Shown: positions 31,577 to 62,803, counted from the first letter of the stretch. The stretch is DNA of 64,000 nucleotides from an uncultured Pseudomonadota bacterium (GCA_963836235.1 CAWIIP010000004.1:416001-480000), one strand, 5' to 3'. The notes: generated by a model from the sequence alone, not told the origin. Numbers and translations: made by a program.

Positions 31577-32743
31577 ATGAAACCCATGTTGCGAGCCGGA
31601 AAATACATTACATTTACGACACTGATTTCGGTCCTCTTCCTCGCCCTCCAGGCGAAAGCGGGGAACGATTCTTCCCAGTTCAGCCTTAGCCTGGACGCCC
31701 AGGGTGAGGTTCTTGCGCCTCCTGGTTTTTCAAGTCTACCCCCTTATTCATTCAATCAAAGTTATACGGCTATTGGCGGGGCTGTTTTTGCCGATTGGCG
31801 CCCGGTACGGTTGATTTCCTTTGGAGTGGGCTTGGAGGATTTTTATTTACCTTCCAACCCAACTTATAAACTGGGTTCCTTCGATTTGGGCGGACGAATT
31901 TTTCCTTTTGCTACTGCCGATGGCGAAGTTTATTTTCAGGGTGGATTAGGCTTAAATCTGAATCTCATACCACCCACCACCTATGGCCATTACCACGGAT
32001 ATGCCGGTATTGGTTATCGCTATTACTTGGCCCACGATATGGCCCTGGACGGAGGCGTCCAATACGATTTTTACTCCCCCATCAACGCACCCTCTAACGG
32101 CGTCGGGGCCAAAGTCGGGATCACTTTCCTCTTTGGACGGGAAAGATGGCCCTTGCCCAGCACGGATTTCAATTCGGAAAACATCAATCACCAGCCGGAA
32201 TATCCCGCGGGTTCTTTCTATACCTGGAAGCCGGGCGATACCCTCAAAACTATCGCCGCCAGGGTTTTGGGGGCGGAGGGCCTTTATCCCGCCCTCGTGG
32301 ACGCCAATCCTGGGCTTTTTTCAAACCCCGCCAGGTTGAGGGTTGGCATGAAATTACGGGTTCCAGACGCGAATTTCTCCGATGATGAGCTGGAAAGCAT
32401 CCATGCGAAGACCCTTGATTCTTCCTATAACCGCTTGGAGGAATATAGTACGAGACTTCCTTACGACACCCTCAAAGGCTGGAAAGGTCCCAAGCATTAT
32501 GTCTGGAAGGAAGGCGACGACTTGAGGTCGGTGGCCAGCAAACTTTATAACGACGAGGATCTCTATCCCGTCCTGGTCGACGCCAACCAAAAGCGTCTGA
32601 TCCATCCCGCCAACTTGGTGTTGGGTGTGGTATTGGATGTGCCCGCGCCACCGGCGGACGAGTGGGTGGAAACCATTCACGAGCGGGCTTGGCAGAAAGA
32701 CTATTACATCTGGTGGAAAACGGTCAGCCAAGGAAATCACTAA
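31577..32743 (+). CDS. Outer-membrane beta-barrel (OmpA/OmpW-like, about 8 strands) fused to two LysM-like domains
   Basis: Signal peptide, amphipathic Gly/aromatic strands ending GAKVGITFLF, then YTWKPGDTLKTIAARVLG...LVDAN...LRVGMKLRVP and YVWKEGDDLRSVASKLY...LVDAN...LDVP. Confidence 0.78.
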   Translation: MKPMLRAGKYITFTTLISVLFLALQAKAGNDSSQFSLSLDAQGEVLAPPGFSSLPPYSFNQSYTAIGGAVFADWRPVRLISFGVGLEDFYLPSNPTYKLGSFDLGGRIFPFATADGEVYFQGGLGLNLNLIPPTTYGHYHGYAGIGYRYYLAHDMALDGGVQYDFYSPINAPSNGVGAKVGITFLFGRERWPLPSTDFNSENINHQPEYPAGSFYTWKPGDTLKTIAARVLGAEGLYPALVDANPGLFSNPARLRVGMKLRVPDANFSDDELESIHAKTLDSSYNRLEEYSTRLPYDTLKGWKGPKHYVWKEGDDLRSVASKLYNDEDLYPVLVDANQKRLIHPANLVLGVVLDVPAPPADEWVETIHERAWQKDYYIWWKTVSQGNH

Positions 32744-32818
32744 CCGTTTTCCGATCCCTTTTCGTTTCGTCCGTTTTTCTGTTTCCTTCCCAGACTTCAC
32801 CCGAATGGACTTTACCCG

Positions 32819-33355
32819 ATGAAAAAAATATTGGTGCTCGCTATTTTCCTCGCTATGTTTCCCCTGTTTGGCCAAGCCCAAGAGGAACAACAGCAATTCA
32901 GCGTATGCCTGGACTTGGTGGGGGACGGAGCCTTCGCCAAGGGCGGTCCCGCCTTTTCACCGGGAGCCGGCGGGAGCCTGTTCGGGGATTGGCGTCCCTT
33001 GCCCTATCTTTCCATCGGCACGGGTTTTGATTTCACACTGCATTCGGATTTTGGTTCCTGGCAGACGGCTTCCTGGGATTTGGGCGGACGGATATTTCCC
33101 CTTGGGACAGGTAAGGGCGGGGAAGGGTACCTGCAAGGTACTCTCGGCTTAAACTTGGCCACCTATGGGCTTGAACATACTTGGCCCGGAAATTTTCACG
33201 GGACCCTCGGCCCCGGCTACCGGGTTTTCCTGGATCCGGGCAATGCCTTCGACTTGGGCGCCCAATATGATTTCTTTTCACCCCGAAGCAAACCTCTTCA
33301 AGCGGTTGGCGTTAAGGTGGGTTGGACTTGGCTCTTTGGTGCGGTTCCCAATTAA
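32819..33355 (+). CDS. Outer-membrane beta-barrel protein, paralog of the upstream barrel domain
   Basis: Signal peptide. Shares QFS..LD..G, DWRP, DLGGRIFP, GE.Y.QG.LGLNL, QYDF.SP and G.KVG.T.LFG with 31577-32743. Confidence 0.75.
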   Translation: MKKILVLAIFLAMFPLFGQAQEEQQQFSVCLDLVGDGAFAKGGPAFSPGAGGSLFGDWRPLPYLSIGTGFDFTLHSDFGSWQTASWDLGGRIFPLGTGKGGEGYLQGTLGLNLATYGLEHTWPGNFHGTLGPGYRVFLDPGNAFDLGAQYDFFSPRSKPLQAVGVKVGWTWLFGAVPN

Positions 33356-33521
33356 GGAAAACCGTCCGACTCGAGACAGGGTCCCTTCAACTAAGAAGTA
33401 AATCTATCGATAAGACATTTTTAGGTTAAATTTTAAACAGAAGAGGCGCAAGCCCTGCCTTTTTCCACGTGTTTTCCGTTAAGATGAGGAAATTTCGCCG
33501 CAAAGGATATAAAATAACCTG

Positions 33522-34268
33522 ATGAAAAAAACGCTGAACGCCTATCCATACCTAATGCGTTACTTGGTCGGTTTGACGGCCTTCCTGTTCGCTTTTACCC
33601 CGGTCTTTCCCCTCTGTGCCGCAGAGGCGAAAAGTTCCGCTCCATCAGTTGATGGGGAAGACCCCTCTTATCCCAAACTGGTGATTGGCTCCGGGGACCT
33701 ATTGGTGATCCAGGTTTACGGTGAGAACGGCAGCGTGTCCACCTCCTCGATGAGCGCCAACAACCAACTGCCAACCACCTATCAGGTGGACTCGGACGGA
33801 GTTATCGTGTTTCCTTTCTTAGGCAGGGTAAAGCTCAAGGGTTTGACGGCGGCGCAAGCCAGCGAAAAAATCGCCGGGCTCCTTTCCAAGCCGCGAAAAG
33901 TGACGGTCTTGATCCAGGTTTCCAACACCTTTTGGGTTTCCATCATGGGGAACGTGGCGAAACCGGACCGTTACCAAATCGTGGGCCAGCCCACCCTGCT
34001 CTCGGCCCTGGCCGAGGCGGGGGGCCCCTTGCCCGGTACCGACATGGGAGGCGCCATCCTGGTCCATAACAACTTCAAGAAAAAGATCGACCTAAGTAAA
34101 TTCCTCCAGGGCGAGGGCCCCACCCAGCCCGATCCTTACCTCTATCCCGGCGACCTCCTGATGGTGCAGAAAAGCCCCTGGCCCGACCTGGGAACCATCG
34201 CGGTCATCGCTTCCATCCTGGCCAGCGGCGCGATCGCGGCGGTGGAAATCAGCAGTTTGAGGCATTGA
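33522..34268 (+). CDS. wza: Short polysaccharide export protein (OPX/Wza family; Poly_export plus SLBB)
   Basis: IGSGDLLVIQVYG...VDSDGVIVFPFLGRVKLKGLT (PES motif), SLBB GNVAKP...TLLSALAEAGG, LYPGD, C-terminal hydrophobic helix. Confidence 0.88.
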   Translation: MKKTLNAYPYLMRYLVGLTAFLFAFTPVFPLCAAEAKSSAPSVDGEDPSYPKLVIGSGDLLVIQVYGENGSVSTSSMSANNQLPTTYQVDSDGVIVFPFLGRVKLKGLTAAQASEKIAGLLSKPRKVTVLIQVSNTFWVSIMGNVAKPDRYQIVGQPTLLSALAEAGGPLPGTDMGGAILVHNNFKKKIDLSKFLQGEGPTQPDPYLYPGDLLMVQKSPWPDLGTIAVIASILASGAIAAVEISSLRH

Positions 34269-34270
34269 TC

Positions 34271-35968
34271 ATGATAGAAACAAACGAACTTCAACCCAAC
34301 GGCGCCGAGTATAACAACGAGGGAGATTTGAGCCTTCAGGAAATCCTGCGCGTGGTTTTGTCCCATTTGCGGCTCATCGGAACCACAGTGGTAGTCTTCC
34401 TGGGCCTAGCCCTGCTCTACGCCTTTTTCTGGCCGCCGACCTATGAGGCGATCACTACCGTCAAAGTCCCTGACGCCTCCGGTTCGCCTACCGGCATGTT
34501 GAAGGAACTGGTTCCTTATTCCGGCAGCGGCGACCCCATCCAAACCTACGTTGAAATCTGCCATTCCGAAAATGTTGCCCAGCGGGTCATTGCCTCTCTT
34601 CAATTGTCCTCCCGTCCCGAGTACGAGGAAGAAACTTCCCAAGTATTGACCCAAAGCCTTTTGGGAAGGGTGACGGCCACCAACGTACTCAAGTCCAACC
34701 TTCTTTCCATTAAAGCCCGCGCCGGAAACGCCCAAGACGCCGCCGATTTGGCCAATGCCTGGGCCAAGGCCTTCATCGAAACCAACCTGGACTTGTCTCA
34801 TAAGGGCGCCGAGTCCAAGCGGATATTCCTGGAAGAACAGGTCAAGCAAATCAAACAGCACCTGGAGAACCCCGACCTGCGCCTGAACGACGAGTCCAAG
34901 GCCGACGAGGTCATGTATACCCAGCTCCTGGCCGACCTCCAACAGGCCCGCCTAGCCGAGACTGTGGACGACACGGGCATTGTGGTGGTGGACAGCGCCC
35001 AGAAGCCGCTCGCGCCCATCAGCCCGCGCAAGACCCGAAGCCTTTTGTTGGCCCTGCTTTTGGCCCTCGCCGCCGGAATTCAAGCTGCCTTCCTTCTGGA
35101 AAAATTTCAGGACCGTGTGAAGAGTGAGGATGTTTTAAAAAGGGTCTCGGGCCTTCCCAACTACGCGGTGGTGCCGGATTTCCGGGATGATTATCCCGAA
35201 GGATTGAGCAAGCCCGACTATTCGCAAAGATTCAGCCCTAAGTTCCTCATTCATAATCCCGTCTTCGAGCATGCCTTCTACCGGGAAAGTTTCAAGGTTC
35301 TTCGCACCAACCTCACCTTCGCCCTGGCGGACAAACCCCTCCAGGTGATCGCCGTTCTTTCGCCCGGCCCGGAGGAGGGAAAGACGCTCGTCAATTCCAA
35401 CCTGGCTATTTCCCTGGCCCAAGGTGGCAAGAAGGTCCTGTTAGTGGATACGGATTTCCGAAAATCCTCCGTGCGCAAATCTTTTGGCCTGGAAAATGGA
35501 ATGGAAACAGGCCTGCCCCTGGCTTTGACCGGACAAAAGCCCTGGAAAGAACTGGTTCGGCCTTCCGGTGTGGAAAACCTGGACCTTTTGCCCAACACGG
35601 TCACTCCTCCCAATCCGGCGGAACTTTTGGGAAGCGCCGCCCTAAAAAAACTCATTGGGGAAATGAAGACCCAATACGACTTCGTGGTTTTCGACGGCGC
35701 GCCGATCCTCGCGGTCACGGACTCGGTGGTGCTTTCCACCCACCTGGACGGGGTGGTACTGCTGGCTTGCTTCGACCAAACCCGTTCCTCGGCCATCGGA
35801 CACGCGCTGGAACATCTACACCGGGTCGGGGCCAACGTGGTTGGAACGGTACTCAATTATGTTCCCGTGAAAAAGGGCCTTTATGGTTATGGCTACGGTT
35901 ATGGATACAATTACGGCTACGGAAAATATCACGACGCCGAGCTGGCCGGGAAAAACTCCAAAAAGTGA
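34271..35968 (+). CDS. wzc: Polysaccharide co-polymerase / BY-kinase (Wzc family)
   Basis: Wzz-like N-terminus with 2 TMs, ESFKVLRTN, Walker A SPGPEEGKT, A' VDTDFRK, PPNPAELL, B VFDGAP, C-terminal Tyr cluster YGYGYGYGYNYGYGKY. Confidence 0.93.
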   Translation: MIETNELQPNGAEYNNEGDLSLQEILRVVLSHLRLIGTTVVVFLGLALLYAFFWPPTYEAITTVKVPDASGSPTGMLKELVPYSGSGDPIQTYVEICHSENVAQRVIASLQLSSRPEYEEETSQVLTQSLLGRVTATNVLKSNLLSIKARAGNAQDAADLANAWAKAFIETNLDLSHKGAESKRIFLEEQVKQIKQHLENPDLRLNDESKADEVMYTQLLADLQQARLAETVDDTGIVVVDSAQKPLAPISPRKTRSLLLALLLALAAGIQAAFLLEKFQDRVKSEDVLKRVSGLPNYAVVPDFRDDYPEGLSKPDYSQRFSPKFLIHNPVFEHAFYRESFKVLRTNLTFALADKPLQVIAVLSPGPEEGKTLVNSNLAISLAQGGKKVLLVDTDFRKSSVRKSFGLENGMETGLPLALTGQKPWKELVRPSGVENLDLLPNTVTPPNPAELLGSAALKKLIGEMKTQYDFVVFDGAPILAVTDSVVLSTHLDGVVLLACFDQTRSSAIGHALEHLHRVGANVVGTVLNYVPVKKGLYGYGYGYGYNYGYGKYHDAELAGKNSKK

Positions 35969-35981
35969 CGGGTCAAGAATC

Positions 35982-36317
35982 ATGACCGCCTTAACTGAAA
36001 AAAAAATCAATGAAATGACGGCCGTTCTTGTTCGGAAAGCCCATCCGGAAAAGATTATTCTTTTCGGTTCTCAGGCCCGACGCACGGCAGGCCCAACCTC
36101 GGATGTCGATTTTGTCGTCGTCGAGAAGAAACCCTTCGGCCCGGACCATAGCCGCCGGCAGGAAATGGTCCGGTTATGGAAGACCCTCTCCCGTTTTGAT
36201 TTTCCAACGGACATACTCGTCTATTCGCAGGAAGAATTTGAGTATTGGTCCGAGTCCATCAACCACGTGGTAGGACGGGCCGTCCGGGAAGGCCGGATTC
36301 TTTATGAGCGACGCTAG
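35982..36317 (+). CDS. Minimal nucleotidyltransferase (MNT) antitoxin
   Basis: KIILFGSQARRTAGPTSDVDF (GS..DxD), ends EGRILYE. Confidence 0.88.
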   Translation: MTALTEKKINEMTAVLVRKAHPEKIILFGSQARRTAGPTSDVDFVVVEKKPFGPDHSRRQEMVRLWKTLSRFDFPTDILVYSQEEFEYWSESINHVVGRAVREGRILYERR

Positions 36318-36771
36318 AGCCGCCCGGGAGCTAATCGCGCGGGCCTTGGTGGATTTGGAGGCCTTAAGGGAGTTGGTTGAAAATCGCCGAATTGCCGATG
36401 AAATATTTGGTTTTCTCGCCCAACAGGCCGCCGAGAAAGCCCTGAAGGCTTGGCTGGCCCTTCTGGGGAAACAATATCCCATCACCCATAACCTGGACCA
36501 ACTTTTACGGGAGTTGAGGGGTTTGGGAATCAAAATTTCCGCCTATGGCGAACTCAGCGGGTTGAACCCTTATGCCGTCCAGTTCCGCTATGAAACCATG
36601 GATTCGTCCGAGCCCGATTTGGACCGTAAAAGCACCTTGAAAGTCATCGGCAACTTGGTGGAAAAGGTCGACGCGCTGATAAAGGACGAGCCTGAAAGGG
36701 GGACCGCCCTCCTTGAATCCCCAGCTTCCTATCGAATCCGCAAGCCCAAAAGTAAAAGAAAAAAAGTCTGA
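36304..36771 (+). CDS. HEPN-domain protein (MNT-HEPN pair)
   Basis: FLAQQAAEKALKAWL...PITHNL..LL...LNPYAVQFRY. Overlaps the MNT gene. Basic C-terminal tail. Confidence 0.88.
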   Translation: MSDARAARELIARALVDLEALRELVENRRIADEIFGFLAQQAAEKALKAWLALLGKQYPITHNLDQLLRELRGLGIKISAYGELSGLNPYAVQFRYETMDSSEPDLDRKSTLKVIGNLVEKVDALIKDEPERGTALLESPASYRIRKPKSKRKKV

Positions 36772-36900
36772 AAAATTTACGATGAAGCATTTCCATCAAA
36801 ACTTTCCGGGTAAAGTTTCCTATATGAGTAAAGATTACCCGCTTCACATCTTCCGGTCTTGCGGTTTTCCCACATTTACCGTCCGTTAGGTATGATGGGA

Positions 36901-36917
36901 TTGGCATAACTGTTGCT
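36901..36917 (+). promoter_or_regulatory. sigma54 -24/-12 promoter upstream of the first WecA-like gene
   Basis: TTGGCATAACTGTTGCT = TGGCAY-N5-TTGCT with exact GG-N10-GC spacing, 66 nt before ATG 36983. Confidence 0.7.
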
Positions 36918-36982
36918 TTTATACTTATACTCAACCCGTCGGCTGAACCAGACGGGGTTTTGTTTGCCTAAGGATTTGTTAA

Positions 36983-38608
36983 ATGGATTTTCAACCTTAT
37001 CTTTTTTTCTTCCTGAGCGGCCTAACGGCCTGCCTTTTTCTGACCCCCCTCTTTATCCGCATCGCCCCCCGCCTGGGTCTCTTGGACCATCCGGCCCACC
37101 GTAAAACCCACGCCAAGGCCATTCCGAAATCCGGAGGATTGGCCCTGGTGGCTTCCGTCCTCCTGGCCTCGGCCTTTAGCATCAAACTCTTCGGACGCTC
37201 GATGGGTTACGACGAAATCAGCACCATCAAGAGCGCCTTTATCCTGGGCATCACCTTCGCGGCCGCTTCCATCGGCCTGATGGATGACCTTTTCGAAATG
37301 AAGCCCCTTCAAAAGCTTCTTCTCCAGGCCCTCGTGATGGGTTGTTTCGTCTTCCTGGGGTTCCGCTTTGAAATCCTCCACCTGCCGGGCCTCAAGCCTT
37401 TTGGCCTTTCCTTCCTGGACGTTTCCCTCACGATCTTTTGGATGTTGGCCGTCCTCAACGGATTCAATTTCATGGACGGCATCGACGGACTGGCGGGTTC
37501 GGTGACGGCGGTGATCCTGCTGGGAATCGGCGGGGCCGAATTTCTGTCCACCGGCCACGGGCCGGGGGGTATCTGGCTGACCACTTTGGGCGCCACTACC
37601 GCCTTTCTCTTTTACAACCGGCAACCCGCCAAAATTTTCCTGGGGGACACCGGGTCGATCGCCCTGGGCACTTTCATCACCGCCACCCTGGTGGCCCTGG
37701 GCAGTTCCCGGCCGGGCTTTCTGGACTTCCGGCTTTTCAGCCACAATGCCCAGGCCGAGCCCATCCATTACCAATTGCTCACGGTGACCCTCCTGGTCGG
37801 GTACCCCGCGCTGGAAGCCGCCCTCTCCACCTTCCGCCGGGCCTTCAAGCGCTATTCGATGGGAAGGTCCATGGGATCCGCCGAGAGGGAGCATATCCAC
37901 CACGTCCTGCTGAAGGCCGGATGGTCGGTGAACCAAATCTGCCTGACCGCCGCCGCCATCCAATTGACGCTGAGCGGGGCCGGGCTGTTGGTCATGGCCC
38001 ACAAGAACGGTTTGGTGCTTTGGCTTCTCGTGCCTCTTTTCATCCTGGCGGCCTTCTTCGGCCCCAAACTCGGTTTCTTCAATTTCCTCCAGATGTCTTC
38101 CCGGCAAAGGCCCAATTTCCGGGTGGCCAACTATTTCATTTCCATGCAGAAGGTGAAACTGGAACTAGCCAACAGCCGGGAGGATGTCCTGGCCCTCGTC
38201 AGCCAGACCTCCCAGGAATTCGGGGTCAAAAGCTGCCGGCTGATCATCAAGCCCGACGAGAATGGCCTGGGCGGCACCGATTATTTCCACGAATGGGACA
38301 TGGCCAAGCCCTCGGAGTTTTTGGGATTCATCCACGAGGCCAAGGGACCTGCGAAATCTTTTTCCGACCACTACAAGCTTTCGGGAGGGAAGGGAGGGGC
38401 CCATTGGGTCTTTGAACCCCAGGCCCAGGAGGAAGATCTGGACGTGGAGTACCACGTGCTGGTCAGCGATTTCATGAGGCAGGCCCTGGAAACCGCCCTG
38501 CGTCTGGGGTCCCATCAGGCCACTTTAGAGATTCCCCATGTCGCCCCCGCGGCCCATGAAACGGTCAGTAGCCATATCCTTCGGCGGGCCCCCAAGTCCC
38601 TTAGTTGA
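36983..38608 (+). CDS. Polyprenyl-phosphate GlcNAc-1-phosphate transferase (WecA/TagO, GT4-MraY family) with extra C-terminal soluble domain
   Basis: LDHPAHRKTH..IP.SGG, GLMDD, NGFNFMDGIDGL, YNRQPAKIFLGDTGS, HIHH. About 170 aa extension after the last TM. Confidence 0.88.
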   Translation: MDFQPYLFFFLSGLTACLFLTPLFIRIAPRLGLLDHPAHRKTHAKAIPKSGGLALVASVLLASAFSIKLFGRSMGYDEISTIKSAFILGITFAAASIGLMDDLFEMKPLQKLLLQALVMGCFVFLGFRFEILHLPGLKPFGLSFLDVSLTIFWMLAVLNGFNFMDGIDGLAGSVTAVILLGIGGAEFLSTGHGPGGIWLTTLGATTAFLFYNRQPAKIFLGDTGSIALGTFITATLVALGSSRPGFLDFRLFSHNAQAEPIHYQLLTVTLLVGYPALEAALSTFRRAFKRYSMGRSMGSAEREHIHHVLLKAGWSVNQICLTAAAIQLTLSGAGLLVMAHKNGLVLWLLVPLFILAAFFGPKLGFFNFLQMSSRQRPNFRVANYFISMQKVKLELANSREDVLALVSQTSQEFGVKSCRLIIKPDENGLGGTDYFHEWDMAKPSEFLGFIHEAKGPAKSFSDHYKLSGGKGGAHWVFEPQAQEEDLDVEYHVLVSDFMRQALETALRLGSHQATLEIPHVAPAAHETVSSHILRRAPKSLS

Positions 38609-38806: not shown

Positions 38807-39118
38807 GTGGGACTCAATTCCAAAATCCGGGTTCAACCGGAAAAGATCGAAGACTTTTGCAGGCGCTATCACGTCCGCAAACTATCCTTCTTCGGATCGG
38901 TCCTCGGCAAAAATTTCCGTCCGGACAGCGATATCGACACGCTCATCGAGTTTGAAACAGGCAAGGGTGCGGGTTTCCTCGGACTAGCCCATATGGAAGG
39001 CGAATTGTCCGGGATTATGGGAGGACGCCGGGTGGACCTCCGAACACCCGGGGAATTGAGCCCTTATTTCAGGGACGAAGTGCTTTCCTCCGCCGTCGTT
39101 CAATATGCGAAATCCTGA
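38807..39118 (+). CDS. MntA-like nucleotidyltransferase antitoxin (type VII TA)
   Basis: FCRRYHVRKLSFFGSVLGKNFRPDSDID, RRVDLRT..LSPYFRDEV. Confidence 0.9.
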   Translation: MGLNSKIRVQPEKIEDFCRRYHVRKLSFFGSVLGKNFRPDSDIDTLIEFETGKGAGFLGLAHMEGELSGIMGGRRVDLRTPGELSPYFRDEVLSSAVVQYAKS

Positions 39119-39536
39119 CTTCGTCCGCATCCGGCATATGCTGGATGCCTGCCGTGAAGCCCTTGGGTTCGCCAGGGGAAAGTCGCGGTCCGATTTGGAC
39201 AAGGATCGAATGCTTGTTCTTTCGCTGGTGAAAGAAGTGGAGATCATCGGTGAAGCGGCCTCTAAAGTTTCCCCTGAAATAAAATCTATTTATCCTGGAA
39301 TACCCTGGTCCGATATGGCCTTCATGCGGAACCGCCTGATTCATGCTTACTTTGACGTGGATTTAGATGTGGTTTGGGAAACTCTCCAAAAGGATTTGCC
39401 AGATTTAATGCGAAAGCTCGAGGATATCAATCCTTCCAGCCTCCAAGAAACCCCCGCCCCTTACGGCGCCCAGAAGACGAAGGCGAAAACCTCCCGAGTC
39501 AAGGGCTTGAAGACCCGGCGGAAAAAAGGGAAGTGA
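39105..39536 (+). CDS. HepT-like RNase toxin (DUF86, HEPN)
   Basis: EIIGEAA...IPW...MRNRLIHAYFDVD..VW (intact RX4HXY). Basic C-terminal tail. Confidence 0.92.
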   Translation: MRNPDFVRIRHMLDACREALGFARGKSRSDLDKDRMLVLSLVKEVEIIGEAASKVSPEIKSIYPGIPWSDMAFMRNRLIHAYFDVDLDVVWETLQKDLPDLMRKLEDINPSSLQETPAPYGAQKTKAKTSRVKGLKTRRKKGK

Positions 39537-54729: not shown

Positions 54730-54999
54730 ATGAAACACAGTAAGAAATCATCGGTTCAAATGGCGGACTTTAAGGCGCATTTGAGCCGCTATATGCGGGA
54801 TGTCCGGCATGGGCTCCGCCTTACCCTCCTTGACCGGCACATGCCGGTGGCGTTGGTGGTGCCCTATTCCGGGAACGCGGGCAAACTGACCGTGCGTCCG
54901 GCGCTTCGTTCTCCCGGCGAGGTCAAACTGCCGGCTCCGATGAAGAAAAAGGTGGATGTGGTCCGCTACGCCGCGGAAGAACGCCAGCGTTACCGTTGA
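54730..54999 (+). CDS. Phd/YefM-family antitoxin (orphan)
   Basis: VQMADFKAHLSRYMRDVRHG..LTLLDRHMPVALVVP, ends EERQRYR. Confidence 0.75.
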   Translation: MKHSKKSSVQMADFKAHLSRYMRDVRHGLRLTLLDRHMPVALVVPYSGNAGKLTVRPALRSPGEVKLPAPMKKKVDVVRYAAEERQRYR

Positions 55000-55062
55000 A
55001 CGCCTAGGGGTCGGCCTTCTCGTGGCGTAATAGTGTCCATGATTGAGTTTTCTCAAGGCCTA

Positions 55063-55091
55063 TTGCCCGGTGTCAGCGGGGAAGATATACT
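55063..55091 (+). promoter_or_regulatory. sigma70 promoter giving a probably leaderless transcript
   Basis: TTGCCC-N17-TATACT, with ATG 55098 only 7 nt downstream and no RBS. Confidence 0.6.
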
Positions 55092-55097
55092 AAAATC

Positions 55098-55280
55098 ATG
55101 ACACTAAAAGCCCTTGAAAAAGCCGTTCGGAAACTCAAACCCGAGCAACAACGTAAATTCCTGAGGGATCTTCCTGCCATCATCCGTCTGCCCCACGACG
55201 ACATGGCCCGCTTAAAGGCCGCCGAAAAATCATTCGCTTTTTGGGATAACCCCCAAGACGCTGTTTATGACCGCCTTTAA
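55098..55280 (+). CDS. Putative antitoxin of MazF/PemK toxin
   Basis: Ends [20 protein letters not shown], the W.N..D.VYD type tail. Overlaps the toxin start. Confidence 0.78.
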   Translation: MTLKALEKAVRKLKPEQQRKFLRDLPAIIRLPHDDMARLKAAEKSFAFWDNPQDAVYDRL

Positions 55281-55614
55281 GCGCGGGGATATCGTCCTTG
55301 TGGCTTTCCCATTTACGGATTTGACTACAGCAAAAATGCGTCCAGCATTGGTGATTTCCGCTGATTCATTCCAGCGATCGGGTATGGATGTTGTTTTAAT
55401 TGGTATTACCTCCCAAATTCCGAAAAAAATCCCTTCAACCGATTATCCGTTATCTCCTGAGGACCAACGGCAAGGAGGGCTTCCTAAACCATCCCTTGTC
55501 CGGTTGGGAAAAATTGTTACTTTGGACCAAAGGCTGATACGGAAAAAACTCGGGCATGTTTCGGCGGAAACTTTGAACCGACTGATCCTGGATTTACACA
55601 AACTACTGAGCTGA
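55267..55614 (+). CDS. MazF/PemK family endoribonuclease toxin
   Basis: [45 protein letters not shown]...KLG. Confidence 0.92.
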
Positions 55615-55652
55615 ATGTTCTGGATTTATCATCTCAAGGAGAATTTATTAAA

Positions 55653-56588
55653 ATGAAGATTTTCATCGCGGGGCATAGGGGCATGGTGGGGTCGGCCCTG
55701 GTGCGACGGTTCCAGGACGAAAAGGGTGTGGAGTTGCTTTTGCGGGACCGTTCACAACTGGACCTTCGCGACCCAAAGCAGGTCTTCGATTTTTACCAAA
55801 AGGAAAAACCCGATACCGTCATCGTGGCCGCCGCCAAGGTGGGCGGGATCATGGCCAATAACACTTATCCCGCCGAGTTCCTTTACCAAAACCTGGCCAT
55901 CGCGGTAAACAGCATCGAAGGGGCTTACCAGGCTGGGGTGAAGCGGCTTTTGTTTTTGGGGAGTTCCTGCATCTATCCCAAACTGGCGCCCCAGCCCATG
56001 CCGGAGGATTGCCTTTTAACCGGCCCCCTGGAACCCACCAATGAAGCCTACGCGGTGGCCAAGATCGCCGGCCTCAAGCTTTGCCAATATTACCGGAAGC
56101 AATATGGCGTCCTATTCCATTCGGCCATGCCCACCAATCTCTATGGCCCCGGGGACAATTACGACCTTAAAAACTCCCACGTTTTGCCGGCCCTGATCCG
56201 GCGGTTCCACGAGGCCTGGGAAACGAAGGCGCCCCTAGTGACTTTGTGGGGAACGGGGAGCCCGAAACGCGAATTCCTGCACGTGGACGACCTGGCGGAC
56301 GCCTGCGCCTTTCTCCTCAAGCTGGAAAATCCCCCGGATTGGGCCAATGTGGGGACGGGCGTGGACGCGACCATTCAATCCCTTGCGCACTTGATCGCTC
56401 AAATGTCGGATTATGAGGGAAAGGTCGAGTGGGACTCCTCCAAGCCCGATGGAACGCCCCGGAAACTGCTGGATGTTTCCCGGCTGGCCCAATTGGGATG
56501 GAAAGCCAAGATCAGCCTTGAAGATGGCATCAAGCAGACCTACCGGGATTACCTGGAAGAAAAAGCCACGGGCAAAATCCGGGAATGA
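55653..56588 (+). CDS. fcl: GDP-L-fucose synthase
   Basis: [66 protein letters not shown]. Confidence 0.98.
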
Positions 56589-57496
56589 TGCGGTTTAAAA
56601 TCGAAAATTTTTTCTATTCAAATAAAGTTAAGGTTCGATTTAGATATCTATCCCTGAAACCGGTTTTTCTTTGGGTTGTCCTTTTCTTTTTTTATTCATG
56701 GGGCGGTTTTGCGCCTCTTCCTGCTTTTGCCGATGAAAGTCCCTGGACCTTTTTACCCCTGGAGCCCCAATTCGCCCCATTGATCGGCGATTACCAGGAA
56801 CCCAATGTCAGTGTTATCCCCCATTTGAGCGAGCAGGCTTTTGAGGGGAATGTGGGCGGAACCGCCGAGCTCATCCGGTGGAAATCGGCGGAGGATATGC
56901 AATGGGGAGTGGGGGTTTTTGGCGGGGCTTTTTTTCTTTTTCAGGACGCGGGCCTTTCCACCTTACGAGTCGTTGATTGGACCAGCGGTTTTTATTTGAG
57001 CGAAAAAACCGGCCTCTTTTCTTTCCGCGCCGAGTTCCAGGATGAAAAGTCCGACCTGGGCGACGAGTATGAATATGTATCCACAAATGCCCTGCCTTCT
57101 TATGATTGGCATAACAACAATTTAACGGTGGCCTTTAATCCAACCGATCAATTTCGACTTTTCGCTGGCGGCGGGGCCAAGGTTTTTTGGGAAGTTTATG
57201 ATCCAACCGAGAGCCTGGCTTTCGTTTTTGGCGGGGCCGAAGCTTATTCCAACCCTTTCCCTTTTTTAAGCCCTTTCTGCCGAGCTTATGGAACCTACTA
57301 CCTCAAATACCAGGACCAAGACGGCGGTATCGTTGACCAAGAATTTCAATTGGGCCTGCAGTTTAAAGGCGACGCGGATCAGCGCCGGGCCTTGCGTTTG
57401 GCCGTCCTTTATTATCTAGGACATGCCGATTACGGGTTGTTTTCGGATCAACCCAATACCCACTATTTTGGTTTCGGGTTATTTATCGACCCGTGA
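56585..57496 (+). CDS. Putative outer-membrane beta-barrel protein (DUF1207-like), copy 1
   Basis: Signal-like N-terminus, WTFLP...FAPLIGD..EP, amphipathic aromatic strands, YYLGH..YG.F, C-terminal FGFGLFIDP. Confidence 0.65.
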
Positions 57497-58371
57497 AAGA
57501 AAAAACGATGGTTAAAATATTCCTGCTCCTCTTCACTTTCGGCTTTTACGCTGGCGCGTTTAGGTTTGCCATGGCCCAAGAAGGAAATTGGGCATTTTTG
57601 CCACCCTCTAATCTCTTCAAACCCTTGCTAGCCGATCCCCGCGAACCGAACAATAGCCTTGAGGTTTCGAGGGATACGACCCGGTATGACTTATCCTTGG
57701 GTGGCTCCATGGATCTCGTTCAATGGAATCTTGCCCAGGATAATCACTGGGGTGTGGGAATCATGGGGGCGGGTTATTTGTTGATCGCCCGGTATGATTG
57801 GGCGAGCTACCGTCTTGAGGACAGCGATTTGTGGTATGGCCTCTATATCTGCCAATCCTCCGGAAAGCTATCCAACCGATTCGAATACCAACATGGAAGC
57901 TCCCATTTGGGGGATTGGCTTTTTGGAACCGCCGGAACATCCTTTAGTATTTATGGGCAGACTTTTACGGAAGAACAAGCTTTCCCTTACGAGCGCGATT
58001 TAATTCAATGGACCGCTTCTTACCAGCCTTTTGATTTTTTGAGGGTTTGTGGCGGATTGGGTGATTGGCTTTACGCAACTCCCACGATTCAAGCCCTTTT
58101 CCCGCATTTAGAAGTTGAGGCTTTTTCAGGTTACAGTGAAATCATCGGAGTGTTTGTGCGTGCTTTTTTTGCCTATGACTTGAAAAGGGGAGACCTTATG
58201 AGCGGGATTACCGACCAAAACTTTAAATTGGGAATCCAAATGAAGCCATCAAAAGAAAGTCTTTCTGAACTTCATCTGGTCTTGGATTATTACAATGGGA
58301 ATAGCGAATACGGACAGTTTTATTTGCAAAGGGATAATCATTTTGGAATTGAAATTTCATTTTTGCCTTGA
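57493..58371 (+). CDS. Putative outer-membrane beta-barrel protein (DUF1207-like), copy 2
   Basis: Signal peptide, WAFLP...LFKPLLADPREP, HGSSHLGD, YYNG.SEYGQF, C-terminal FGIEISFLP. Confidence 0.72.
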   Translation: MKEKTMVKIFLLLFTFGFYAGAFRFAMAQEGNWAFLPPSNLFKPLLADPREPNNSLEVSRDTTRYDLSLGGSMDLVQWNLAQDNHWGVGIMGAGYLLIARYDWASYRLEDSDLWYGLYICQSSGKLSNRFEYQHGSSHLGDWLFGTAGTSFSIYGQTFTEEQAFPYERDLIQWTASYQPFDFLRVCGGLGDWLYATPTIQALFPHLEVEAFSGYSEIIGVFVRAFFAYDLKRGDLMSGITDQNFKLGIQMKPSKESLSELHLVLDYYNGNSEYGQFYLQRDNHFGIEISFLP

Positions 58372-58665
58372 AATACATTGGGATATCATTGTCATGCCCG
58401 TGGCTTGGATCGTGAGCAGGTCCAGAGGAATTTATGAAGTGTGATATTAAAATTCAACTTAACTCGAAGAACGATATTCGTTCAAACGCAGATGGGTTCC
58501 CTTTTTTTTCCACGTTCTTTGCAGTAAATTAGTTTTGAGGTCGAACCACCCTTTCCCGCGCGAAAATATAGGGAAAAGGCCCTATTTCCTTGCTTAAAAG
58601 GGCTAAACACAGTAATATTCATTAACTTTTCAAGGTTTTTAAAACTCCAGGCTTAAAGCTGAAAA

Positions 58666-59433
58666 ATGAGAATGACCACACTACACCTTACACGTTTTCT
58701 GGCCCTTTTCTTGGCCTTTTCCATGGTTTTCACCCCTATCCTGCCCTTATGGGCCGCCGAGATGGATGATAGCCCGGCGAAGGCTAATCTTGATTACCCC
58801 CCCCTCCTCATTGGCCCGGGCGACATGCTTACCATTACGGTTGTAGGCTATCAAAACCATGGGGGAATGAGCGGGGCAACGGCTTTTACTAACAATAGCG
58901 TGGATCTCCCGACTGAATACTTGGTGGACAGCAACGGGGATATCCTTTTTCCCTTTATCGGGAAAGTGAGTCTTTTAGGGATTTCCCAAATCGATGCCAG
59001 CAATAAAATCATGAAAAAGTTATCCCAATTCCTTAAGTTTCCCCAGGTCACCGTCCTGATCAAGTCGACCAATAGTTATAACATCTCGGTTTTGGGCCAA
59101 GTTGCCCATCCTGGTGAATACTTGATCCGAGGGCAGGCTACTTTCCTTTCCTCCATCTCGGAGGCGGGGGGGCCGGTCGAAAACGCCGATTTGGGCGGTA
59201 CGATCCTCATCCACAAAGGGAAAAAAACAAAATTGGACTTGGGCAAATATCTCTTAGACAAAAATTTTAATGGAGTGGATCCCTACGTCTATCCGGGCGA
59301 TATCATTATGGTTCCCAAGAGCGGATGGCCTTCCGTCGCCGAATGGGCCGTGATCGCGGGCATCCTCTCCAGCGCTGTTATTGTTTTCACTTATGTTCAT
59401 CCGCTCAATAATTCCAATAACAGCGGAAATTAA
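58666..59433 (+). CDS. wza: Short polysaccharide export protein (OPX/Wza family), copy 2
   Basis: IGPGDMLTITVVG...VDSNGDILFPFIGKV, GQVAHPG...SEAGGP, YVYPGD, C-terminal hydrophobic helix. Paralog of 33522-34268. Confidence 0.88.
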   Translation: MRMTTLHLTRFLALFLAFSMVFTPILPLWAAEMDDSPAKANLDYPPLLIGPGDMLTITVVGYQNHGGMSGATAFTNNSVDLPTEYLVDSNGDILFPFIGKVSLLGISQIDASNKIMKKLSQFLKFPQVTVLIKSTNSYNISVLGQVAHPGEYLIRGQATFLSSISEAGGPVENADLGGTILIHKGKKTKLDLGKYLLDKNFNGVDPYVYPGDIIMVPKSGWPSVAEWAVIAGILSSAVIVFTYVHPLNNSNNSGN

Positions 59434-59444
59434 GAGAGAAATTC

Positions 59445-61169
59445 ATGGCCTCGAATTCCCCTAACCCACAACCATCCCGAAGTCCCCGGGAAAACAAAAC
59501 GATAGAAAATTCCGGGGAAATTAATTTCAGGGAAATATTCCGTGTCTTGACTCACCACCAAAAACTCATCCTTGGGTGCACCCTATTTTGTTTTTTAGCT
59601 GGGGTGCTCTACGCTTTTTTATTCCCAAAAACCTATGAGGCCTTTACCACAGTCAAGGTGCCACAGTCCACTGAAGCCACCCAAAACGCCCTCCGTGAAA
59701 TGGCCGCCTTGTCACCCATGGGCGATGATTTAGAGACCTATCTACAATTGGCTCAGTCCAAGATCGTCGCGCAATATACCGTTGAAACCCTCGGCTTGAG
59801 ATCAAATCCCGAGTTTAAGGATGTGAATGACCAGGGTTTGATCTATATGCTTATGGGTGAGGTGCGTGTTTTCGACAACAAAGAATCCAATATCCTTACT
59901 ATTACGGCCGATACTCATGACCCCCAATCGGCTATGGATTTGGCCAATGCCTGGGCCCAAAATTTCATCCGGGTGAATTTGGAACTAAGCCGAAAAAGCG
60001 CCCAGACTAAGTACCAATTCATCGACGACCAACTCCAGGACATGAAGTCCAAATTGGAGGGGGATAAGGGCAATAAACAAAACTACCTGGACCCTTCCAA
60101 TGAGGCCGAATCGGACCAGCTGGTTTATAAGATGCTGCTTCAACAGGATCAAGCCGCGAAAATCGAAGCCAAGGGAGAGGATCCCGGCATCGTCGTGGTG
60201 GACCAAGCCACCCTTCCAGAAATGGCAATTAAACCCAGGAAGAAATTGGGATTGGTTTTAGGGCTGATCATTGGCCTGCTCCTGGGCGTTCAATCCGCAT
60301 TCCTGTTGGAAAAAATCCAAGACCGGGTCAAGTCCGAGGAGGACATCCAAAACGAAACGGGCTTGGTGCCTTTGGCACTTATTCCGAATTTTCGGATTAA
60401 AGAAGGAAAAACCCTTTTTTCGCCGGCCGAGAGGTTTTCGCCCAAGCATTTGATTGAAAACCGTGAATTCGACCATTCACCCTATCAGGAAAGCTTCAAC
60501 ATTTTTCGGACGAATTTGACTTTTTCCCAGGTCGATAAAAAACTTCAAGCGATTAGCGTTTTTTCGGCTAATCCAGAGGAAGGGAAGACCCTGGTCAATT
60601 CGGACTTGGCCTTGAGCCTTTCTCATACGGGTAAAAAAGTCCTCTTGATTGACGCGGACCTTCGGAAATCGTCTATCGGTATGATTTTCGGTATCAAGGT
60701 TCCATCAAATACGGGTTTGCCGATGTTGTTGGCGGGCAAAGGAAAAATCGCTGAAATGGCGGTGAAAAGCGAGTTTGAGAATCTTTGGCTGCTTCCTAAC
60801 AATGTCATTCCCCCTAACCCCTCCGAACTTTTGGGATCTGAAGCCATGAAGCATTTGATTCAGGAATTGAAAAAGCAATATGATTATATTATCATCGACG
60901 GCGCCCCCATTTTGCCCGTGACCGATTCGGTGGTGCTCTCCACGGCTCTGGATGGGATGGTCCTGATGGCCCGCTATAACCAAACCCGCCGAACTGAAGT
61001 CAATCGCGCTTTGCGGCTTCTGAGGGCCGTCAACGCGCCGCTTTTAGGAACGATATTAAATTGCGTGGATATGAAAAGCAGTCAATATGGATACTATGGA
61101 TATGGCTATGGATACGGAAGCGGTCCGACCAAAGGTGCTGACGACCCAACCGACACGAAGTTGGGTTGA
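59445..61169 (+). CDS. wzc: Polysaccharide co-polymerase / BY-kinase (Wzc family), copy 2
   Basis: SANPEEGKT, IDADLRK, PPNPSELL, IIDGAP, Tyr cluster YGYYGYGYGY. Confidence 0.93.
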   Translation: MASNSPNPQPSRSPRENKTIENSGEINFREIFRVLTHHQKLILGCTLFCFLAGVLYAFLFPKTYEAFTTVKVPQSTEATQNALREMAALSPMGDDLETYLQLAQSKIVAQYTVETLGLRSNPEFKDVNDQGLIYMLMGEVRVFDNKESNILTITADTHDPQSAMDLANAWAQNFIRVNLELSRKSAQTKYQFIDDQLQDMKSKLEGDKGNKQNYLDPSNEAESDQLVYKMLLQQDQAAKIEAKGEDPGIVVVDQATLPEMAIKPRKKLGLVLGLIIGLLLGVQSAFLLEKIQDRVKSEEDIQNETGLVPLALIPNFRIKEGKTLFSPAERFSPKHLIENREFDHSPYQESFNIFRTNLTFSQVDKKLQAISVFSANPEEGKTLVNSDLALSLSHTGKKVLLIDADLRKSSIGMIFGIKVPSNTGLPMLLAGKGKIAEMAVKSEFENLWLLPNNVIPPNPSELLGSEAMKHLIQELKKQYDYIIIDGAPILPVTDSVVLSTALDGMVLMARYNQTRRTEVNRALRLLRAVNAPLLGTILNCVDMKSSQYGYYGYGYGYGSGPTKGADDPTDTKLG

Positions 61170-61183
61170 ACCGGAGGTAAGGA

Positions 61184-62803
61184 ATGGATAGTTTGAAATT
61201 ATCATTGCCTTTCCTATCGGCTTTGGTGGCGGGTTTTATCTTGACCCCGTTTTTCGCGAAGGCCGCGAAGAAATTCGGACTGATGGACAATCCGGGGCAC
61301 CGTAAGACCCACGCGAAACCCGTGGCTTACCTCGGCGGGGTGGCTGTTTTCGCGGCTTTGTCCTTCACTCTCGGACTCTTTTGGCTCTTCAGGGTTCACT
61401 CCTTTTACCTCTCCCCCGAAAATGAAAAAATCTTTTTAATCTTTTCCGCCAGCTTCGGAGTTTTCTTGGTGGGGCTTTGGGACGACGTCCTCCATATCCG
61501 GCCCCGAGACAAAGTCATCGGTCAATTGGTATTTGCCAGCCTTTTCGTCACATTTGGTTACAGATTCGAAACCCTCCAAGTTCCCGGGTTCCACCCGGTG
61601 GATCTAGGTATGGTTTCGATACCCTTTACGGTTTTTTGGATTCTATCCGTCATCAATGCTTTCAACATGATTGACGGTTTAGACGGCTTGGCGAGCACCG
61701 TCACGGCGGGCAGCCTTTTCCTACTCGGCGCGTCTTCGGCCATGATTGGAAATAGTGGAATCCTGATTTTGAGTTTGGCCGCGATGGGTTCGGTTCTGGG
61801 CTTTCTGCGATATAACTGGTCTCCGGCTAGTATTTATTTGGGGGACGCCGGCTCCAACGGCCTGGGCATGCTGTTAGCGGCTTCCCTGGTGGCGCTCGGC
61901 CAAAACAACTGTTGGTTTCCGGGGTCTTCTATTCCAGTCAAAGGGTTTGGGCAGCCTTTCCCTTATCAGGTTTTCGTTGTTACCCTTCTCGTCTCCTACC
62001 CCGCTTTGGAAATTCTACTTTCTGTTTTCCGGCGTCTTTTAAAGGGAAGGCCCATTTCCCGGGGAGACAAGGGACATATTCACCACCGTCTCCTCAATTT
62101 AGGCTGGGCCAAGCAGGGAGCTTGTTTGGCCGCCTTGGGCGTCACCTTCCTGATGGGTAGCGTGCCGGTGGCCCTATTGGCCCACCAATATGGAAAGGCG
62201 ACCTGGCTCTTGGCGGTTTCCAGCCTCTTCTTGGGGTTGGTTCTCTCCTTCCTTGGATTTTTAAATTTCTTGCTTCCCCACGTTGTGGCCCGCAATCGCC
62301 CCCATTTCCTGATCGCCAATAGCTTCATCGCGATGCAAAGAGGCAAGTTGGGTCTGGCGGGAAACCGGGAGGAAGTCCTGGCCCTTCTTAGCCAGACCTG
62401 CGCGGAGTTCGGGGTCCAGGGATTCAAAATCAACGTCAATTCCAACGGCCACGGCAACAGCCCCTGTCGTTACTCTTGGGAAAGGTCCCACGAGATGTCC
62501 CGGGAATATTTAAACTATCTTAAAACGGATATCGTGAAGGGGAATTTTGAGCATTTTAAGGAACAGCTGAGCTTGGAAGGGGGCAATTGCGACGCTTTTT
62601 GGATTTTCGAGCCCCACACCGAGGAAAGGGACCTTGATGTCGAATACCGGGTTCTAGTCAGCGAGTTTATGAAGGAAGCTATGGACCGTCTTTATGTTCT
62701 GAAAGGCAATAAAAGCGACAATCCCGTTGTCCAACTGAACGGACTTGCCCATGGTAAAGTCAGGTCGAGTCTTTTGAGCCGAAGGCACGCTAGGAAAAAT
62801 TGA
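61184..62803 (+). CDS. WecA/TagO-like phosphoglycosyltransferase with C-terminal extension, copy 2
   Basis: DNPGHRKTH, GLWDD, NAFNMIDGLDGL, YNWSPASIYLGDAGS, DKGHIHHRL. Same C-terminal extension as 36983-38608. Confidence 0.88.
   Translation: MDSLKLSLPFLSALVAGFILTPFFAKAAKKFGLMDNPGHRKTHAKPVAYLGGVAVFAALSFTLGLFWLFRVHSFYLSPENEKIFLIFSASFGVFLVGLWDDVLHIRPRDKVIGQLVFASLFVTFGYRFETLQVPGFHPVDLGMVSIPFTVFWILSVINAFNMIDGLDGLASTVTAGSLFLLGASSAMIGNSGILILSLAAMGSVLGFLRYNWSPASIYLGDAGSNGLGMLLAASLVALGQNNCWFPGSSIPVKGFGQPFPYQVFVVTLLVSYPALEILLSVFRRLLKGRPISRGDKGHIHHRLLNLGWAKQGACLAALGVTFLMGSVPVALLAHQYGKATWLLAVSSLFLGLVLSFLGFLNFLLPHVVARNRPHFLIANSFIAMQRGKLGLAGNREEVLALLSQTCAEFGVQGFKINVNSNGHGNSPCRYSWERSHEMSREYLNYLKTDIVKGNFEHFKEQLSLEGGNCDAFWIFEPHTEERDLDVEYRVLVSEFMKEAMDRLYVLKGNKSDNPVVQLNGLAHGKVRSSLLSRRHARKN

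Follow-up and report, generated by a model that had tools for sequence, protein, structure and literature searches.

Two paralogous modules with short OPX proteins and neighboring outer-membrane barrel genes in a predicted polysaccharide export locus of an uncultured bacterium

A stretch of 64,000 nucleotides from an uncultured Pseudomonadota bacterium (GCA_963836235.1 CAWIIP010000004.1:416001-480000), called the window here, was found to carry two paralogous gene modules for polysaccharide export, at 31577-38608 and 56585-62803. Each consists of a pair of outer-membrane (OM) beta-barrel genes followed by genes for a short protein of the outer-membrane polysaccharide export (OPX) kind, a polysaccharide co-polymerase (PCP) of the Wzc kind and a WecA-like transferase. 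A first-pass annotation had proposed from this layout a candidate new type of polysaccharide translocon. In the analysis reported here the OPX proteins proved unusual and the barrel genes were linked to the modules in a non-random manner, but the barrels were mostly not supported as the exit channel and are best read as accessories, not conduits. The host is an uncultured diderm that makes lipopolysaccharide, and LpxC was found in a profile search of its genome.

Gene content of the modules and the OPX proteins

All ten genes of the two modules were present on the + strand, in the order and at the positions given by the first-pass annotation. Domains were called from Pfam and NCBIfam matches, which backed all of the calls. 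Module 1 begins with barrel 1a (31577-32743), an 8-stranded OmpA-like barrel of approximately 190 N-terminal residues with two LysM-like repeats behind it (Pfam LysM, E 6.9e-6; two stretches matched by the NCBIfam LysM model) and a member of the small-barrel alignment, and with barrel 1b (32819-33355), a small barrel that stands alone (178 aa) and has a signal peptide but no Pfam match. OPX1 (33522-34268; 248 aa) has a signal peptide, a PES/D1 domain (Poly_export, E 2e-17), one SLBB/D2 domain and a hydrophobic C-terminal segment. PCP1 (34265-35968; 567 aa) is a PCP-2a co-polymerase with a fused bacterial tyrosine kinase (BY-kinase) and a Tyr-rich tail (YGYGYGYNYGYGKY), matched by Wzz, GNVR and AAA_31. 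WecA-like 1 (36983-38608; 541 aa) is a predicted polyprenyl-phosphate N-acetylhexosamine-1-phosphate transferase (Glycos_transf_4, E 5.4e-31) with a C-terminal extension of approximately 180 aa. A nucleotidyltransferase/HEPN toxin-antitoxin pair (35883-36771, + strand; Pfam Polbeta/NTP_transf_2 and HEPN) lies between PCP1 and WecA-like 1; this insertion and the LysM repeats of barrel 1a had been overlooked in a module listing whose order was otherwise right. The first open reading frame (ORF) of the inserted pair shares 86 nt with the end of PCP1.

Module 2 begins with a tandem pair of DUF1207 (PF06727) genes, the first of which, DUF1207a (56585-57496), has the degenerate motif QDEKSDLGD, and the second, DUF1207b (57493-58371), encodes a 12-stranded OmpLA-like barrel with the motif HGSSHLGD intact; both exceeded the Pfam cut-off of 22 bits (37.1 and 75.5 bits, respectively). 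They are followed by OPX2 (58666-59433; 255 aa), of the same architecture as OPX1 by Pfam and by PDB sequence matches, PCP2 (59445-61169; 574 aa), a PCP-2a/BY-kinase with the tail YGYYGYGYGYG (Pfam, NCBIfam and paralogy with PCP1), and WecA-like 2 (61184-62803; 539 aa), with the same C-terminal extension as WecA-like 1 (Pfam, NCBIfam and paralogy). The gene order of this module also stood, with the qualification that the DUF1207 pair is joined to the gmd/fcl operon upstream of it and is separated from OPX2 by a gap of 294 bp. The overlaps of fcl with DUF1207a and of DUF1207a with DUF1207b are 4 bp each, indicating co-expression. Scans for promoters and terminators, run over 31000-34000 and 55000-59000, yielded counts like those of shuffled sequence and left the operon borders undefined.

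Between the modules, identity was 44% for the OPX proteins (E 3e-65), 47% for the PCPs (9e-156) and 38% for the WecA-like proteins (9e-116), so that the homology proposed for the wza, wzc and wecA copies was borne out. Within the barrel pairs, DUF1207a and DUF1207b were 31% identical (1e-36) and barrels 1a and 1b 42% identical over the barrel (1e-32), and the two pairs did belong to different families as had been suspected, one OmpA-like and 8-stranded and the other DUF1207. The modules are paralogous as claimed, but they are not the only ones in this genome (99.4% complete). A third was found at G000:C4:639728-644087 (locus L008:9728-14087) in the order WecA-like (552 aa), OPX (292 aa, with the same tail and without a lipobox) and PCP (524 aa), followed downstream by two Wzx-type genes, a Wzy-like gene and a pyruvyl transferase. 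There was no barrel gene in the third module, and its upstream neighbors encode leucine-rich repeat proteins on the opposite strand.

With Poly_export (PF02563; cut-off 28), OPX1 scored 63.6 bits and OPX2 58.6 bits. SLBB_2 matched OPX2 with 30.8 bits and OPX1 with 25 bits (cut-off 27), yet OPX1 aligned throughout with OPX2 and with D2 of Wza. When the profile of the OPX family (35 members) was aligned with E. coli Wza in HHalign, the alignment covered residues 80-254 (D1-D2) with a probability of 99.6 and ended there. OPX2 matched the PDB sequences of Wza (66-232, E 1.5e-17) and PslD (52-221, E 4.3e-7). Pfam and the Wza alignment thus agree with the earlier description of two short proteins with one Poly_export and one SLBB domain each. 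Approximately 5 residues after D2 comes a short WP-containing turn and then a hydrophobic run, 18-21 residues long, with K, R, H or N at its end. This C-terminal segment (WP..EWAIIASI..) was kept in OPX1-3 and in all 64 close relatives (at least 39% identity), extending what the first-pass annotation had seen in two proteins. Its statement that a lipobox is lacking was likewise confirmed: the F-P-L-C of OPX1 contains a Cys but does not make a lipobox, Trp takes the place of this Cys in OPX2, and a loose lipobox pattern was matched by just 4 of the 64 close relatives, the other 60 being without it. There was no match of Pfam Wza_C to OPX1 or OPX2 at E<=0.01, and the tail was left unaligned to Wza. 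OPX1 and OPX2 are predicted to consist of D1 and D2 only and to be short non-lipoproteins, which is unusual.

PCP1 and PCP2 contain Wzz, GNVR and AAA_31 and scored 153 and 179 bits with TIGR01007, above the cut-off of 108. With Wzz and GNVR between two transmembrane (TM) helices, a BY-kinase domain and a Tyr-rich C-terminus, both have the composition of PCP-2a/Wzc proteins, and their scores against the Wzc equivalogs were below the cut-offs (176-204 bits vs 1068). The periplasmic region between the two TM helices was approximately 204 aa in PCP1 and 210 aa in PCP2 compared to approximately 373 aa in E. coli Wzc, as expected from the first description of Wzc proteins of about 570 aa with a short periplasmic region. 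The WecA-like proteins scored 108 and 127 bits with PF00953 (cut-off 27) and 81.8 and 97.6 bits with TIGR02380, below its cut-off of 326; they are assigned on these matches to the Glycos_transf_4 family, with the sugar left unspecified. Their C-terminal extension (38060-38608 and 62280-62803; approximately 175-185 aa) is common to both paralogs and matched no Pfam family, and an Atlas feature search with it returned unnamed clusters only. The Atlas matches were stand-alone proteins of 146-166 aa from Acidobacteriota and Planctomycetota (score 0.94-0.96).

The taxonomic order has 34 Poly_export loci, in 32 genomes, and all of them were fetched and sorted. At least 15 of these loci had small-barrel genes, between one and four, directly upstream of OPX, 6 had the order WecA-OPX-PCP-Wzx without a barrel, 3 had a DUF1207 pair, and 10 had other layouts or were cut at contig ends. 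A quick OPX tree was built with 30 rows, leaving out 4 loci in which no OPX ORF of at least 190 aa was called. The barrel-less type formed one clade (6/6 loci, support 100) with the same tail. The main small-barrel clade had 13 rows, 10 with small barrels and 3 with the upstream side cut or unknown. OPX2 grouped with two OPX proteins of other genera (support 95) that have a small barrel upstream, and not DUF1207. The proposed linkage of barrels to the modules is upheld for the small barrels, and one DUF1207 subclade is tied to glycan loci. As for larger porins, the window genome had no match to Alginate_exp, and its best match to Wzi (PF14052), located elsewhere in the genome, reached 18.2 bits and was below the cut-off of 30.1; a search for DUF6029 found no match either, but its control was silent, so that this is not evidence of absence.

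The barrel genes and the glycan pathway between the modules

The model of barrel 1b had 8 strands (pLDDT 88 and pTM 0.77, from a 23-sequence alignment). The small barrels are OmpA-like in that they form an 8-stranded antiparallel barrel with an aromatic C-terminal strand, similar to OmpA, NspA and OprF, and no Pfam model matched the family above cut-off. The domain was present in 31 of the 32 genomes of the taxonomic order, in 1-7 copies each. When the 49 strongest matches (E <=1e-30) were placed in their loci, 36 were found to adjoin OPX, PCP or WecA-like genes: 24 were within 5 kb of Poly_export, 9 beside a WecA-like gene and 3 beside a PCP-like gene. The 9 matches beside WecA-like genes came from three loci without OPX or PCP. 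In these loci, L081 (G052:C57), L082 (G051:C2) and L085 (G047:C22), 2-4 small-barrel genes are followed by a WecA-like gene, and the tie of the small barrels to the initiating transferase is thus as close as their tie to the exporter.

Fusions of the small barrel to other domains were found with LysM repeats, two OmpA_C domains (E 2e-43), Beta_helix/NosD-type repeats and TPR, and a distant paralog was located among heme genes (G000:C1:64040). An even number of strands leaves both ends of an OM barrel facing the periplasm. The small barrels would therefore serve, as OmpA does, as OM anchors for periplasmic modules that bind the wall or the glycan, and barrel 1a is read as a putative tether between the OM and peptidoglycan. 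A family is thereby defined whose members would anchor LysM, OmpA_C, beta-helix and TPR modules in the OM beside polysaccharide export genes.

The model of DUF1207b was a 12-stranded barrel of high confidence (pLDDT 90.1 and pTM 0.82, from a 53-sequence alignment), and it shares this fold with OmpLA/PLA1. The match of DUF1207 to OmpLA was seen in the wide VIA-align search only, whereas the barrels that Foldseek picked from the PDB were generic (TM <=0.45). The DUF1207 profile gave chance matches only against PDB sequences (E >=0.68), its HHalign probability with E. coli PldA was 3.5%, and no match to PLA1 (PF02253) was obtained even at E<=10. There was also no OmpLA of the PLA1 family in the window genome. 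The H-x-S-S-H-L-G-D motif occupies residues 134-141 of DUF1207b (57892-57915), at the outer end of strand 5 as counted, and by our strand count Y-N-H-D-S-N-G lies at the end of strand 5 in OmpLA. Among the best 150 of 2,283 representative clusters, the motif columns were kept as H in 140, S in 134, H in 137, L in 134, G in 144 and D in 142. In the model, the motif suggests a lipid-directed enzyme; no mention of it was seen in the paper found to name DUF1207. A Wzi-like role for DUF1207 was rejected, as there was no family match and the strand number differs.

Of 99 genomes of the phylum, 35 contained DUF1207, nearly always as tandem pairs, and these 35 took in 30/30 other genomes of the family of the window genome. 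Poly_export went unmatched in nine of the family genomes with DUF1207, some of them of 99% and 98% completeness. By our count, the 89 DUF1207 matches fell into 53 loci, of which 3 were at most 1 kb from an OPX gene (in the window genome, its genus mate and one other genus) and 2 more were 12-17 kb away. In approximately 24 of the 40 loci fetched, the context was ispG-proS-GT4-DUF1207-DUF1207-dnaE-rimP-nusA-infB, GT4 being a glycosyltransferase (GT). The core pair of the window genome is at G000:C2:964996-967913 (L010:11996-14913), and its synteny is kept across the family. Full-length comparison put the GT4 of the core locus closest to alpha-monoglucosyl-diacylglycerol synthase and other glycolipid synthases, with 153 bits, below the equivalog cut-off. 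A wider search for DUF1207 loci returned only genomes of the same phylum and two contigs labeled Nitrospinota, and in the 8 new loci that were scanned neither OPX nor small barrels were matched.

In a quick tree of 53 DUF1207 sequences, the first genes (20/20) formed one clade (98) and the second genes (20/20) its sister clade (88), indicating that the pair is old and that its gene order has been kept. The pairs located in glycan loci, from the window genome, its genus mate and three other genomes, formed one subclade in each half of the tree (96 each). All five of these pairs lie in glycan loci; OPX-PCP is the neighbor of three of them and gmd or fcl that of four. Their first genes are all without an intact motif, as in the window (QDEKSDLGD), and changes are also seen in several second genes. 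The tree and the loss of the motif indicate that the pair of module 2 is a diverged copy of the core, lipid-linked pair that has settled in glycan loci. The adjacency of DUF1207 and OPX was not kept among the nearest relatives of OPX2. The gene-neighborhood check suggested in the first-pass annotation thus gave DUF1207 adjacent to OPX in just 3/53 loci, core pairs in 30/30 family genomes, and one subclade whose pairs are in glycan loci in 5/5 cases. DUF1207 comprises approximately 2,283 representative clusters, including chlamydial proteins, with no assigned function, and the OmpLA-like fold, the near-invariant His/Ser motif, the tandem pairs and the glycolipid-synthase-like neighbor provide a testable lead for it.

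The region between the modules contains a glycan-building island of low GC content (39861-52980, + strand; GC 0.38-0.43 compared to 0.50-0.57 in the flanks), identified from Pfam matches and from HfsF-like and WcaI-like NCBIfam matches. It encodes a Wzx-like flippase (39861-41189), methyltransferases, a GT11, a GT2-sulfotransferase fusion (43672-45606), a GT4, an acetyltransferase, a Wzy-like polymerase (48949-50112; Wzy_C), two DUF218 genes and a WcaI-like GT. The part from 39861 to 50112, with its GT11 fucosyltransferase, resembles an exchangeable serotype cassette with conserved export modules on either side. Next to the island, at 53650-56588 on the + strand, gmd (53650-54663) and an fcl-like gene (55653-56588) flank a MazF-like gene (Pfam GDP_Man_Dehyd, E 4e-133, Epimerase and PemK_toxin); gmd and the fcl-like gene are predicted GDP-fucose synthesis genes. 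Since Wzx-like, Wzy-like, GT, gmd and fcl genes lie between the modules, the loci are assigned to the Wzx/Wzy type.

Toxin-antitoxin-type genes or pairs occur four times within the polysaccharide locus, as the nucleotidyltransferase/HEPN pair at 35883-36771, a nucleotidyltransferase/HepT pair at 38807-39536, ParE at 53352-53633 and MazF at 55267-55614. Directly upstream of module 1 (26325-31469) is the gene for a secreted protein of 1714 aa with Kelch repeats and very long Pro/Thr-rich tracts. In the relatives L085, L086 and L088, queC and a radical-SAM gene precede the small-barrel genes where the window has the Kelch protein.

Proposed export route and its alternatives

The reading that we favor, and regard as probable though far from settled, is that the modules contain a Wza-like short OPX protein that spans the OM by itself, with the barrels as accessories. 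The two modules would be two of three paralogous starter-and-export modules of Wzx/Wzy-type pathways. The WecA-like enzyme would start the repeat unit on the polyprenyl phosphate carrier, and the low-GC island would build a fucose-containing, probably methylated and sulfated unit, which Wzx would flip and Wzy polymerize. The octameric PCP/BY-kinase would then pass the polymer to the OPX ring. The hydrophobic C-terminal segments of the eight OPX subunits may form both pore and anchor in the OM, and no separate porin would then be needed. The small barrels would hold LysM, OmpA_C, beta-helix and TPR domains beside the machine and probably fix the OM and the wall around a complex with short periplasmic parts; it may be speculated that such a short conduit, of two OPX rings and a short PCP, is what gives the small barrels their relevance. 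The DUF1207 proteins of module 2, from a diverged and partly motif-dead subclade, would most likely modify OM lipid or the anchorage of the polymer and not form the conduit. The first-pass annotation had left both roles open to the barrels, exit or accessory. The exit is disfavored by their 8 and 12 strands and by a third module that has no barrel, and the accessory role is favored; its own caveat, that the C-terminal helix might form the pore and that an 8-stranded barrel is too narrow, anticipated this result.

Several points weigh against the favored reading. The pore is inferred from the tails, and these are far more hydrophobic and less amphipathic than D4 of Wza (Eisenberg H 0.71 and muH 0.18, compared to 0.18 and 0.34). 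Because the tail is unlike Wza D4 and has no match to Wza_C, the OPX proteins may instead be retained in the inner membrane. The insertion values that bear on this question come from a crude, position-independent scale after Hessa et al. 2005, which ignores position effects. The strong linkage of small barrels to OPX modules could mean that the barrels are required and not just helpful. For DUF1207, the proposed link to OmpLA is one of modeled fold only; the H-x-S motif is put at the OmpLA active-site position by our own strand counting and not by superposition; and DUF1207a and DUF1207b probably form a heteromer, which is putative.

In the first alternative, the helix-bearing short OPX would be unable to cross or gate the OM by itself and would need the neighboring barrels as obligate partners, the two forming a composite translocon, a fourth OM export architecture. 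It accounts for the small barrels directly upstream of OPX in at least 15 of 34 loci and in two separate OPX clades, for the 36 of the 49 strongest small-barrel matches that adjoin OPX, PCP or WecA-like genes, and for the motif largely lost from glycan-locus DUF1207, as expected if an enzyme had been re-used structurally. Moreover, the window OPX proteins are without the lipid anchor that the Class-3 protein WzaB is described as needing to oligomerize (PMC12819527). Against this, the third module and the OPX clade of 6/6 loci have the same tail with no barrel gene nearby, small barrels are found beside WecA-like genes in loci without OPX and PCP as well, and DUF1207 pairs are universal in the family, including the nine genomes without a Poly_export match. 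The barrels also have 8 and 12 strands, compared to the 16-18 reported for known polysaccharide porins (PMC9601211), and the count of 12 in the DUF1207b model went against the suggestion that DUF1207-like barrels are the exit. A composite translocon is considered unlikely. In its fullest form, helix-tailed OPX rings would work only within a larger OM assembly, in which OmpA-like barrels with wall- or glycan-binding domains, and in one lineage also a catalytically decayed OmpLA-fold DUF1207 heterodimer, are docked around the ring, replacing the lipid anchor and bridging the short conduit to the wall; we give this a small chance. If true, OPX with docked barrels would be a fourth OM export architecture and would give a DUF1207 subclade its first assigned role. 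As a helix-type tail is here combined with recurrent barrel neighbors, the lineage is a natural test case for OPX accessory barrels.

A second alternative is that the OPX tail is a stop-transfer anchor in the inner membrane, so that the OPX ring is periplasmic and another component provides the OM exit. The uniformly hydrophobic stretch of 18-21 residues followed by K, R or H, with its Eisenberg H of 0.71 and low moment, unlike Wza D4, would suit such an anchor, and two of the tails in the window genome are near 0 on the crude insertion scale, OPX1 at +0.22. OM helices are reported to have insertion values above 0 and bitopic inner-membrane helices values below 0 (PMC11845990). The OPX tails had a mean of +2.7 and 34 of 35 were above 0, with 1 below, whereas the four TM helices of the window PCPs were all below -1 (-1.0 to -2.5), those of E. 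coli Wzc were at -0.8 and -3.9, and Wza D4 was at +13.4. The values being mostly above 0, the OPX tails are on the OM side of the divide, though not far from it. The established Wza structure has D1 on the PCP side and the end of D2 directed at the OM. A tail that begins approximately 5 residues after D2 would, as an inner-membrane anchor, invert the ring relative to the PCP, and no candidate family of large porins for the alternative exit was found in the genome, the DUF6029 control being silent. Inner-membrane anchoring is accordingly held to be improbable.

The weakest alternative, that the barrel genes encode housekeeping OM proteins whose position beside the modules is meaningless, fits the core DUF1207 pair among housekeeping genes, the DUF1207-OPX adjacency in just 3/53 DUF1207 loci that was not kept in the OPX2 clade, and the distant small-barrel paralog among heme genes, but it is quite unlikely given that small-barrel linkage to OPX/WecA-like modules recurs across many genera, that the glycan-locus DUF1207 pairs are a single subclade found in glycan loci in 5/5 cases, and that the 4-bp overlaps indicate co-expression of fcl, DUF1207a and DUF1207b.

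Comparison with known export systems

The first-pass annotation held that the OPX proteins of the window fit neither established class cleanly, which was an overstatement. In the survey of Schwabe et al. (PMC9601211), 535 of 1,230 short OPX proteins (at most 280 aa) are given as having a C-terminal helix and no barrel and as being "likely to function similarly to Wza," compared to 453 with a coupled barrel and without the helix. Class 1 OPX proteins are described as Poly_export-SLBB(1-14)-Wza_C, and approximately 78% of them as lipoproteins and 22% as not (Saidi et al., PMC9603273). The window OPX proteins are similar to Class 1 or helix-type short OPX proteins in their length of at most 280 aa, in PES/D1, in one SLBB-type domain, in a C-terminal helix-like segment, in a Wzx/Wzy-type locus with a PCP and in the proposed Wza-like working. 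They differ from Class 1 in being predicted non-lipoproteins without a Wza_C match and with a tail much more hydrophobic than Wza D4, and they come from a candidate phylum, whereas the published helix-type proteins are from Bacteroidetes. They are also often found beside barrel genes, contrary to the helix-or-barrel dichotomy as published (PMC9601211). A limited, non-dedicated literature search brought up no published account of barrels next to helix-type OPX proteins. OPX1 and OPX2 are best described as a non-acylated variant of the self-spanning short OPX proteins with a more hydrophobic tail.

That a short OPX protein can cross the OM by itself is established by the cryo-EM structure of PslD-PslE (PMC13434223; PDB 9v6l). 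PslD is described there as a 256-aa OPX protein of two periplasmic rings whose C-terminal residues 221-254 span the OM as a parallel beta-barrel. The window proteins resemble it as short OPX proteins of two periplasmic rings with no separate porin, and in PslD it is the C-terminal 34 or so residues that span the OM as an octamer. In contrast, PslD is a lipoprotein with a parallel beta-barrel tail, PslE is without the kinase site and the Tyr cluster where the window PCPs have a Tyr-rich tail, and the periplasmic part of PslE is long (156 A) where that of the window PCPs is short.

The Class-3/D1D2 OPX proteins of Myxococcus xanthus with their Wzp/EpsX porins also combine a short OPX gene with a neighboring OM barrel gene in a Wzx/Wzy locus. 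Class-3 OPX proteins are described as lipid-anchored and without a membrane segment (PMC9601211, PMC9603273 and PMC12819527), whereas the window OPX proteins have a tail. The Wzp/EpsX porins have 18 strands and are AlgE/PgaA-like (DUF6029), in contrast to the 8 and 12 strands of the window barrels, so that the window departs from Class 3 in both components, the barrels being short of 16-18 strands.

Among OM barrels, OmpLA/PldA (PDB 1fw2 and 1qd6) resembles DUF1207 in having Tyr-x-His-x-Ser at the outer end of the counted strand 5, and OmpLA acts as a dimer while the DUF1207 genes are conserved pairs. DUF1207 differs in having no profile similarity to OmpLA, H-x-S-S-H-L-G-D in place of H-x-S-N-G and no identified equivalent of Asn156, and the motif is lost in DUF1207a. 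OmpA and OprF share with the small barrels an 8-stranded N-terminal barrel and a periplasmic peptidoglycan-binding domain, and one relative has two OmpA_C domains. In contrast, the partner domain of the small barrels is usually LysM, a CASH-type beta-helix or TPR, and their genes are clustered with OPX-PCP-WecA-like genes. Finally, Wzi is encoded just upstream of wza-wzb-wzc in group 1 capsule loci, and is similar to the window barrels as a barrel gene preceding OPX-PCP whose product is an accessory in capsule anchoring and not in export, although it has 18 strands compared to the 8 and 12 of the window barrels.

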